Shown one piece after another: positions 37,041 through 40,120 of a DNA stretch of 64,000 nucleotides. The stretch lies in the NCBI RefSeq assembly GCF_003018255.1, contig NZ_CP027440.1. One strand, 5' to 3'. The stretch comes from Escherichia coli. Lineage in GTDB: Bacteria > Pseudomonadota > Gammaproteobacteria > Enterobacterales > Enterobacteriaceae. The notes under the pieces were generated by a model. It had not been told where the DNA came from, did not search any database, and saw nothing but the letters and a program-made list of their open reading frames with translations. Both the position numbers and the translations under genes were made by a program. Numbering within the stretch: position 1 is the first letter of the stretch; every line of letters begins with the position of its first letter.

Positions 37041-37832
37041 TTATTTCTTTTTGTTGGTGGTCTGACCGAAGGCGTGCCAGGTAGCAGAGACGCTGTTGAG
37101 ATGCGATTGCAACGCACGATCGGCTTCATCGGGATCGTGGCGGCGGATCGCGTCAACGATCGCAATATGCTGTTGATAGCTAACGTTGTTATGCTCGTGC
37201 AGAGCCTGATCAGCCACGGTTGGACGTGCGGCGATCAGCCAGTCGAGCAAGGCAACGTGGATCGCCATGAAGATTGGGTTACCGGGGATCTCCGCCAGCA
37301 CGCGGTGGAAATCAACGTCTGAACGAATGAATGCCGCGTTGTTATCCAGCGACTGACTGTTGATTTCCAGTGCTTTTGCCAGCAAATCGATTTGCTCATC
37401 GGTGGCGTGTTCAGCCGCATAGCGCACCAGGCTGGATTCAAAGAACAGACGTAATTGTTCGAAATGGGCAATCCCGCCAGGATGAGAAAGGAAATCTTTC
37501 GCCATGCCGGAAAGCTCGCCGATGATGGTGTCCGCAGAAGGACGTGAGACGCGAGCGCGTTCGCCGTTGTTTATCTGCACCAGACCTTTGCGTTTTAACG
37601 CTGCCAGCGCTTCGCGCACCGAAGGACGCCCGACGTTAAAGAACGCCATCAGTTCGCGTTCAGACGGTAATTGTTCACCTTCGCCAAATTCACGACGGCG
37701 GATCATCTGTTCCAGCTCTTCTTCCACCATTTCGGAGAGTTTTTTACGCGCCAGCGGGCGGCTGCGTAAGTTGCGGCCAATTGCAGGTGAAGAATCTTCG
37801 GTTTGCGAATCAAATGCGTTCATAAGGCCCAT
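37041..37832 (-). CDS. nanR: GntR/FadR-family transcriptional repressor of the nan operon
   Basis: 263 aa, [76 protein letters not shown]... Confidence 0.93.
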
Positions 37833-38211
37833 TCTGTAAGGTCAGTGTGATTAACATCATCAGTGACATCCTATCACAGGATTGAAAGTAGGGGGAAATG
37901 GCGGGGTTTTCTCTTTGTGCCTCATCATTACTATAATTAACTGAATAATTAACTATTGCGAAAAATTAATGTAACGCAGATAAAAACATCCCGATTGAAT
38001 TATTCATAAGACTATTAACAAGTATTATGAATATTATGAATGTGTTCTTACAAAATAATCATAAGCGCATATTTTTTAATGAAAAATCACCTCATCTACA
38101 ATTAAAAACACGACATCCGCACCATAAATAGCCTTGCAAAAAATATAACATCATTGTTTTCAATCTGCCGTTTATGGGATTGACCATTTTCTTTTGACAC
38201 GGAGTTCAACA

Positions 38212-39579
38212 ATGTTCGGCATAATTATATCTGTCATCGTATTAATTACGATGGGCTATTTGATCCTGAAAAACTACAAACCTCAGGTGGTGCTGGCTGC
38301 CGCAGGTATCTTCCTGATGATGTGCGGTGTCTGGTTAGGGTTCGGTGGTGTGCTCGATCCCGCCAAAAGCAGCGGCTACTTGATCGTCGATATTTATAAT
38401 GAAATCCTGCGCATGCTGTCCAACCGCATTGCTGGATTGGGGCTGTCGATTATGGCAGTGGGCGGTTATGCCCGCTATATGGAGCGCATAGGGGCAAGTC
38501 GCGCGATGGTGAGCTTGTTAAGCCGCCCGTTAAAACTCATTCGCTCGCCGTATATTATTCTGTCGGCAACTTACGTCATCGGCCAAATCATGGCGCAGTT
38601 TATTACCAGCGCCTCCGGTCTGGGTATGTTGCTGATGGTCACCTTATTTCCGACGCTGGTGAGTCTGGGAGTAAGTCGTCTCTCTGCGGTGGCGGTTATC
38701 GCAACCACCATGTCCATTGAGTGGGGGATTCTGGAAACGAACTCCATTTTTGCTGCCCAGGTCGCAGGAATGAAAATTGCCACTTACTTCTTCCACTACC
38801 AGCTTCCGGTCGCCTCTTGCATCATTATCTCGGTGGCGATCTCCCACTTTTTCGTGCAATGCGCTTTCGACAAAAAAGATAAAAATATCAATCACGAACA
38901 GGCAGAGCAAAAAGCTCTCGATAATGTCCCGCCGCTCTATTACGCCATTTTACCGGTGATGCCGTTAATCCTGATGCTCGGCTCGCTGTTCCTTGCCCAC
39001 GTCGGGCTGATGCAGTCAGAACTGCATCTGGTGGTGGTGATGTTACTGAGTTTGACGGTGACGCTGTTTGTTGAGTTCTTCCGCAAGCATAACTTGCGCG
39101 AAACAATGGACGATGTGCAGGCGTTTTTTGACGGCATGGGTACGCAGTTTGCCAACGTGGTAACGCTGGTGGTCGCGGGTGAAATATTTGCGAAAGGCTT
39201 AACGACGATTGGCACTGTCGATGCGGTTATCAGGGGGGCGGAGCATTCTGGTCTGGGCGGTATTGGCGTGATGATTATTATGGCGCTGGTCATTGCCATT
39301 GGTGCCATTGTGATGGGCTCAGGCAATGCGCCGTTTATGTCATTTGCCAGTCTTATTCCGAATATCGCAGCCGGACTACATGTACCAGCGGTTGTAATGA
39401 TTATGCCGATGCATTTTGCCACGACGCTAGCGCGCGCTGTTTCGCCGATTACTGCGGTGGTGGTCGTTACGTCAGGAATTGCAGGCGTTTCGCCTTTTGC
39501 GGTAGTGAAGCGGACAGCGATCCCCATGGCAGTCGGTTTCGTGGTGAATATGATTGCCACTATCACGCTATTTTATTAA
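38212..39579 (+). CDS. dcuD: C4-dicarboxylate transporter DcuC-family protein DcuD
   Basis: True start [20 protein letters not shown] (ATG at 38212), 455 aa, multi-pass membrane protein. Confidence 0.9.
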
Positions 39580-39594
39580 GCGATTAAAAAGACA

Positions 39595-39619
39595 AAACAG
39601 GCCGCCAGGGCCTGTTTTC
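39595..39619. terminator. Bidirectional intrinsic terminator between convergent dcuD and sspB
   Basis: AAAACAGGCCGCCAGGGCCTGTTTT: GC stem flanked by an A-run and a T-run. Confidence 0.7.
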
Positions 39620-39622
39620 ATT

Positions 39623-40120
39623 TTACTTCACAACGCGTAATGCCGGTCGACCACCGCGTGGTGGCTGCGGAGGTTCATCGTCAGGATGAGTGTCATCATC
39701 GTGATCTGGCTTGTCGCCATCAATAACCGACATAACGGTTTCGTTGTCTGCCGATGCCTCTTCATCATTCATGATGCTGGCATCTTCATCGTAGGCAGCT
39801 TCAGGTTCAAACATCGTGCCTGCGCCATTTTCACGGGCGTAGATAGCCAGCACGGCAGCCAGCGGCACAGAAACCTGACGCGGAATGCCACCAAAGCGCG
39901 CGTTAAAGCGCACCTCATCATTCGCCAGTTCCAGATTGCCGACAGCTCGCGGCGCAATGTTGAGTACGATTTGCCCGTCACGCGCATATTCCATAGGAAC
40001 CTGCACGCCAGGGAGCGTCACATCCACCACCAGGTGCGGCGTGAGCTGGTTATCCAGCAACCACTCATAGAATGCACGCAGCAGATAGGGACGACGTGGT
40101 GTTAGCTGTGACAAATCCAT
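39623..40120 (-). CDS. sspB: Stringent starvation protein B (ClpXP adaptor)
   Basis: 165 aa, MDLSQLTPRRPYLLRAFYEWLLDNQLTPHLVVDV...; acidic C-terminal tail ending RGGRPALRVVK. Confidence 0.95.
   Translation of the reverse strand: MDLSQLTPRRPYLLRAFYEWLLDNQLTPHLVVDVTLPGVQVPMEYARDGQIVLNIAPRAVGNLELANDEVRFNARFGGIPRQVSVPLAAVLAIYARENGAGTMFEPEAAYDEDASIMNDEEASADNETVMSVIDGDKPDHDDDTHPDDEPPQPPRGGRPALRVVK

Follow-up and report, generated by a model that had tools for sequence, protein, structure and literature searches.

The window analyzed here is a 64-kb stretch of Escherichia coli DNA in which the divergently oriented genes nanR and dcuD flank an AT-rich intergenic spacer. The features at this locus are as follows.

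37041–37832, minus strand: nanR, the divergent sialic-acid repressor gene
37833–38211, no strand assigned: nanR-dcuD spacer, 379 bp, AT-rich, containing the repeat and H-NS-bound in K-12
37868–37900, minus strand: nanR-proximal block (CATCCTATCACAGGATTGAAAGTAGGGGGAAATG), better conserved than any other in the spacer, kept in dcuD-less E. coli
37933–37942, plus strand: copy 1 of the repeat, ATAATTAACT (minus strand AGTTAATTAT)
37945–37954, plus strand: copy 2 of the repeat, ATAATTAACT (minus strand AGTTAATTAT)
38212–39579, plus strand: dcuD, DcuC-family C4-dicarboxylate carrier (labeled dcuC by PGAP)

Gene coordinates and base composition agree with the originally described context, a 379 bp AT-rich spacer between divergent nanR and dcuD: GC content is 32.2% in the spacer, compared with 52.1% in the window, 53.9% in nanR, and 51.0% in dcuD. 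The spacer is 100% identical to that of E. coli strain 104. The direct repeat reported within it is likewise present, with two copies of the 10-mer ATAATTAACT that are exact in this strain (10/10) and separated by 2 bp (GA), yet the positions initially assigned to them (37934–37943 and 37946–37955) were one base too high. No further exact copy of ATAATTAACT occurs elsewhere in the 64-kb window. Repeat copies recur with a period of 12, yielding a 12 bp tandem unit arranged head to tail (ATAATTAACTGA / ATAATTAACTAT) in the local sequence context …cattacTATAATTAACTgaATAATTAACTattgcg…. Copy 1 lies upstream of both genes, with the nanR ATG 101–110 bp away and the dcuD ATG 270–279 bp downstream; the repeat is nearer to nanR than to dcuD and occupies a variable central stretch of the spacer. 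Directly after the repeat, positions 37957–37978 comprise a near-palindrome (TGCGAAAAATTAATGTAACGCA, 79% self-complementary), and the adjoining AACGCAGATAAAAACATCCC is almost invariant in Escherichia, not so in Citrobacter.

The spacer is present in ~4,370 of 5,426 complete E. coli genomes and the two-copy state in ~4,342, while synthetic one-copy and three-copy queries identified neither allele among the 5,426 genomes. The perfect 10/10 allele of the window is a minority variant, found in ~178 of 4,361 genomes at an identity of at least 99%. K-12 and most E. coli carry ATAATTAACG followed by ATAATTAACT, the whole reading ACCATAATTAACGGAATAATTAACTATT, and the part common to both copies in this K-12-type allele is the 9 bp core ATAATTAAC. 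Alignment of seven E. coli strains revealed SNPs at 37932 (T/C), 37935 (A/G), and 37942 (T/G); all three are located in or beside copy 1, with no variation in copy 2 among the seven strains. A more divergent version of segment 37905–37985 (80–90% identity) is found in 14 E. coli genomes, which were not picked out by a query with the allele of Escherichia E1V33. A second tandem repeat with a 9 bp unit, TATTATGAA, is located at 38023–38041, 70 bp from the repeat under study. It comprises 2.1 copies here and varies in copy number, with one copy in C325, two in most strains, and three in FDAARGOS_448.

Approximately 1,050 of the 5,426 genomes match nanR only, being devoid of dcuD and most of the spacer (~37901–39600), repeat included. 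In strain CD306, for instance, nanR is located 107 bp from sspB, with dcuD and most of the spacer gone, and the nanR-proximal block is retained and directly followed by the sspB terminator. In these dcuD-less E. coli, the sequence retained in front of nanR reaches ~68 bp from its ATG. Citrobacter and three other Escherichia species share the order nanR-dcuD-sspB, and an ancestral gene has therefore been deleted, in a lineage-specific manner, from the E. coli genomes that lack the segment; dcuD (51% GC) is ancestral at this locus and not horizontally acquired. As the repeat is absent from dcuD-less strains that keep nanR, nanR functions there without it. Insertions of IS1 in the spacer were also observed in several strains, accompanied by deletion of the nan operon, at positions 37952/37953 and ~38155. 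Strain p10B harbors a gltF-IS1-dcuD arrangement with the IS1 junction at 37952/37953 inside copy 2, and strain WEM25 a gltD-IS1-dcuD arrangement. Recurrent IS5 insertion in the nanR-dcuD spacer has been described in an evolution study (bioRxiv).

Conservation beyond E. coli, which had been put forward as a check on the repeat, was analyzed in 18 loci of the same gene order from Escherichia and Citrobacter, retrieved with DcuD as protein query. Escherichia sp. MOD1-EC7003 contains exactly one 12 bp unit (TTATCATAATTAACTATTG), copy 1 being missing, and E. whittamii and E1V33 harbor a degenerate copy 1, GTAATTAAT (longer stretch GTAATTAATTTA), followed by ATAATTAAC. The repeat turned out to be the lowest-conserved part of the spacer: it is 0.71 identical to three other Escherichia lineages compared with a spacer mean of 0.87, and 0.33 identical to 15 Citrobacter genomes compared with 0.53. 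In Citrobacter the repeat region is not alignable despite the shared nanR-dcuD-sspB order. Within the three Escherichia lineages the two copies differ, with identities of 0.53 for copy 1 and 0.97 for copy 2. Phylogenetic footprinting in Escherichia and the 15 Citrobacter genomes hence places conservation at the repeat below, not above, the local background. Together with the copy 1 SNPs and the absence of the repeat from ~1,050 E. coli genomes, these alignments speak against an operator under constraint at the repeat.

The nanR-proximal block at 37868–37900 contrasts with the repeat in this respect, its top 20 bp bin (37873–37892) reaching an identity to Citrobacter of 0.84. On the minus strand, TGaTAGGAT at 37876–37868 would make a plausible extended −10 element for nanR. 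A sigma70 ChIP-seq peak at 3372531, corresponding to window position 37850, is located at the nanR end of the spacer, ~20 bp from the block (PMC3688515, Table S1). Sequence and sigma70 peak together point at this block as the likely nanR promoter. For dcuD, a sigma54 “dcuD promoter” listed in RegulonDB (TGGCAG-N7-CTCTT) maps to 37899–37915, just upstream of the repeat and with none of it inside the repeat. This element reads TGGCGG in the present strain and TGGCAG in K-12; most Citrobacter genomes show an alignment gap at its position. A single sigma54 ChIP-seq site has been attributed to dcuD, 2,253 bp upstream and outside the spacer (Bonocora et al. 2015). A promoter and terminator scan yielded nothing at the repeat, and an Rfam scan of 37750–38300 at an E-value of at most 1 gave a chance snoRNA match only. 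Expression of dcuD is reported to be absent under most conditions tested, and literature searches on dcuD in connection with its promoter, with H-NS, or with nanR brought up no work on the nanR-dcuD spacer.

In order to place the locus on published K-12 occupancy data, window coordinates were equated with U00096.2 coordinates minus 3334681, a map derived from the dcuD start and checked against the sspB start. The repeat thereby corresponds to 3372614–3372635 and the spacer to 3372514–3372892. H-NS ChIP-chip regions cover the whole spacer in anaerobic cells (3371957–3373402, window 37276–38721) and the whole spacer together with dcuD in aerobic cells (3371888–3374315, window 37207–39634) (Myers et al. 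2013, PMC3688515, Table S3); with a ChIP-chip resolution of ~0.5–1 kb in K-12, this is occupancy at the level of the region, coarser than the repeat. In the same data, no 3372xxx coordinate is present in the FNR tables, including those for the hns stpA strain, the nearby IHF ChIP region ends at 3372255 inside nanR with none on the spacer, and dcuD is absent from the supplements, hns stpA tables included (PMC3688515). Consensus scans for FNR, CRP, IHF, Fis, and NarL likewise gave no match overlapping 37933–37954. Inspection of published ChIP data, as proposed along with the repeat, shows H-NS over the entire spacer in K-12 and no peak of FNR, IHF, or ArcA. A true site might, however, be hidden from ChIP by the H-NS that covers it.

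The spacer shares several properties with H-NS-silenced AT-rich regions such as the proU and bgl regulatory regions: a GC content of 32% in a 52% GC context, a location inside H-NS regions under both growth conditions in K-12, a downstream gene (dcuD) reported to be unexpressed, and a tendency to draw IS1 and IS5 insertions. Unlike regions of the proU/bgl type, it contains no mapped nucleation site, its best match to the TCGATAAATT motif being 8/10 and outside the repeat, and dcuD itself is an ancestral gene of 51% GC, not a horizontally acquired one.

The proximity of the two copies is non-random. When the spacer was shuffled 5000 times with its dinucleotide composition preserved, an exact 10-mer recurred within at most 15 bp in 31 shuffles (0.6%) and within at most 24 bp in 67, and base composition alone is thus not sufficient to account for the repeat. 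Across the 64-kb window, seven near-tandem 10-mers were observed compared with 0.99 expected from block shuffles (maximum of four in 100 shuffles). This excess is the signature of a mutational process, with small local duplications as a regular by-product and the present repeat as one instance.

We consider it fairly probable that the repeat is a 12 bp slippage micro-duplication within an H-NS-occupied AT-rich spacer, that it is not a dedicated operator, and that the H-NS-bound tract is what keeps dcuD silent. Replication slippage in the AT-rich central spacer would have generated the head-to-tail 12 bp duplication before the split of E. coli from E. whittamii-like lineages. Substitutions would later have gathered in copy 1 by drift, and one lineage would secondarily have returned to a single copy. 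The repeat would then be part of a 32% GC tract, rich in TpA steps, that is under H-NS in vivo and may silence dcuD. Its own contribution would be generic, providing AT-rich DNA for an H-NS filament and possibly −10-like hexamers suppressed by H-NS. A slippage origin, the absence of a specific regulator, and a role of H-NS in dcuD silence are each probable on the data above.

A slippage origin is supported by the head-to-tail period of 12 and by MOD1-EC7003, which is without exactly one unit. In these respects the repeat resembles slippage micro-VNTRs, being arranged head to tail with a period equal to the unit length and having lost one unit in a sister lineage; the neighboring TATTATGAA repeat, with its one, two, or three copies, fits the same pattern. 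In contrast to active micro-VNTRs, it is fixed at two copies in the ~4,342 E. coli genomes and is not currently active. This fixation speaks against the slippage account, as TATTATGAA varies only 70 bp away, yet two imperfect 12 bp units are expected to be weakly slippage-prone. Also counting against the account as a whole are the near-invariance of copy 2 across Escherichia (0.97) and the presence, in both copies, of exact matches to WGTTAATTAW (0.04 expected) and of 13/15 matches to an Lrp consensus (P ~0.04).

Two readings were first offered for the repeat. A regulator-binding site for dcuD is unsupported, given the poor conservation, the one-copy sister lineage, and the lack of an FNR, IHF, or ArcA peak. 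A low-complexity AT tract comes nearest to the data and needs amending in two points: the repeat is a genuine 12 bp duplication and not low complexity, and the tract is bound by H-NS.

Among more specific alternatives, a site for an AT-preferring architectural protein (Lrp, Fis, or IHF) that assists the nanR promoter from upstream is unlikely. Such an element would lie ~72–93 bp upstream of the inferred nanR transcription start, which is predicted near position 37861. In its favor, the repeat is closer to nanR than to dcuD, and the sigma70 peak is found at the nanR end of the spacer. With respect to Lrp, 13/15 positions of what we take to be the SELEX consensus, YAGHAWATTWTDCTR, are matched by CAGTTAATTATAGTA and likewise by TAGTTAATTATTCAG, both 15-mers on the minus strand; two matches compare with 0.25 expected (P ~0.04), although they are not independent because they belong to one duplicated sequence. 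The consensus is, moreover, degenerate and AT-rich, and Lrp sites usually occur in arrays ~30 bp apart rather than 12 bp. In dcuD-less E. coli, nanR works without the DNA of the repeat, with only the ~68 bp upstream being kept. For IHF and Fis, the IHF ChIP region stops within nanR, and the repeat carries no consensus match for either protein. Neither nanR nor dcuD is mentioned in the supplements of one Lrp ChIP paper, a weak negative. With regard to DcuR, comparison of its LEE1 footprint TTATCTCACATAATTTAT with the K-12 allele leaves the AT-rich heptamer CATAATT alone in common.

A role of the repeat as duplicated −10-like hexamers that drive transcription in the dcuD direction, or spurious transcription, is quite improbable. 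The plus strand reads cTATAATt and gAATAATt, the C-to-T SNP of this strain at 37932 creates a perfect TATAAT at 37932–37937, and the sigma54 dcuD promoter of RegulonDB is close by (37899–37915). In addition, cryptic promoters are abundant in AT-rich H-NS-bound DNA. However, an acceptable −35 element is missing (the hexamer at 17 bp spacing is TTCTCT), the promoter scan made no call there, and K-12 carries CATAAT instead of the perfect hexamer. Sigma70 peaks are found at window position 37850 and within dcuD, not at the repeat; sigma54 ChIP-seq is without a site at 37899–37915; and dcuD itself is reported to be unexpressed.

Very unlikely, too, is an operator for ArcA-P or another response regulator of the OmpR/PhoB type, formed by the two minus-strand AGTTAATTAT boxes and coupling nanR/dcuD to redox. 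We take the classical 10 bp ArcA box consensus to be 5′-WGTTAATTAW-3′, which is said to stem from Lynch and Lin in 1996. Each copy (AGTTAATTAT) matches it at 10/10 positions, and these are the sole two exact matches in 64 kb, compared with 0.04 expected per shuffled spacer. Taken as a single direct-repeat element, copy 2 scores 7.7 bits, near the median of 7.4 for real ArcA elements, and 22 bp away from copy 2 there is a third GTAA element. ArcA ChIP peaks are, furthermore, known at the paralogous carrier genes dcuA, dcuB, and dctA (PMC3798270). An ArcA box consists of two direct repeats spanning 18 bp with 11 bp from center to center (Park et al. 2013, PMC3798270), whereas the copies described here have 12 bp from center to center. 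At putP, ArcA-P gave no protection of an element with 12 bp spacing (PMC3798270). From 115 published boxes (Table S3, PMC3798270) we rebuilt a weight matrix, which reproduces published scores (17.6 compared with 17.3, and 21.6 compared with 21) and assigns 5.9 bits to the copy pair and 8.0 bits to the best 18-mer of the spacer, both below the authors' cut-off of 10 bits. None of the 176 published K-12 regions falls between 3242801 and 3382502 (PMC3798270, Table S1), and nanR and dcuD are unlisted in a second ArcA/Fnr data set from K-12 (PMC3974632). Neither gene is named in the supplements of the two studies, which cover K-12 under the respective conditions (PMC3798270, PMC3974632). Copy 1 in K-12 reads CGTTAATTAT, and the region is not conserved in Citrobacter. 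The repeat thus has the direct-repeat geometry and the GTTAA core of an ArcA box as defined by Park et al. (2013), but differs from it in its 12 bp spacing, a score below cut-off, the lack of an in vivo peak, and the lack of conservation in Citrobacter. As a candidate ArcA box it was rejected: three of the four features considered (spacing, matrix score, and K-12 occupancy) disagree, and the single-element WGTTAATTAW match agrees.

That the AGTTAATTAT pair might be a genuine, non-canonical 12-bp-spaced operator for ArcA or another response regulator, masked by H-NS in the laboratory and, under some gut condition, turning on the cryptic dcuD or modulating nanR, is highly improbable. Were the ArcA-like boxes functional, the repeat would be relevant to a question of long standing, namely when dcuD is expressed; otherwise, the repeat has no bearing on it. 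Pure coincidence of composition without any duplication event is disfavored and scarcely credible, for although the spacer is 68% A+T and 743 of 5000 shuffles repeat some 10-mer anywhere in it, period-12 adjacency arises in 0.6% of shuffles only, the 12 bp register continues into the flanking bases, and the sister lineage differs by exactly one 12 bp unit.

The repeat is real and ordinary, another instance of a known sequence event, and if the slippage account within H-NS-occupied DNA is true, it simply adds to the neutral micro-duplications in AT-rich DNA coated by H-NS. Attention would then shift, for the control of both genes, to the conserved blocks at 37868–37900 for nanR and at 38027–38080 and 38133–38152 for dcuD. 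The latter two are shared between Escherichia and Citrobacter and are, based on their sequence conservation, better candidates than the repeat for a dcuD promoter or operator. Identity to Citrobacter amounts to 0.74 at 38053–38072 and to 0.77 at 38133–38152, the latter including the invariant AAAAATATAACATC. The 9 bp TATTATGAA repeat sits at the margin of a block showing partial conservation in Citrobacter.
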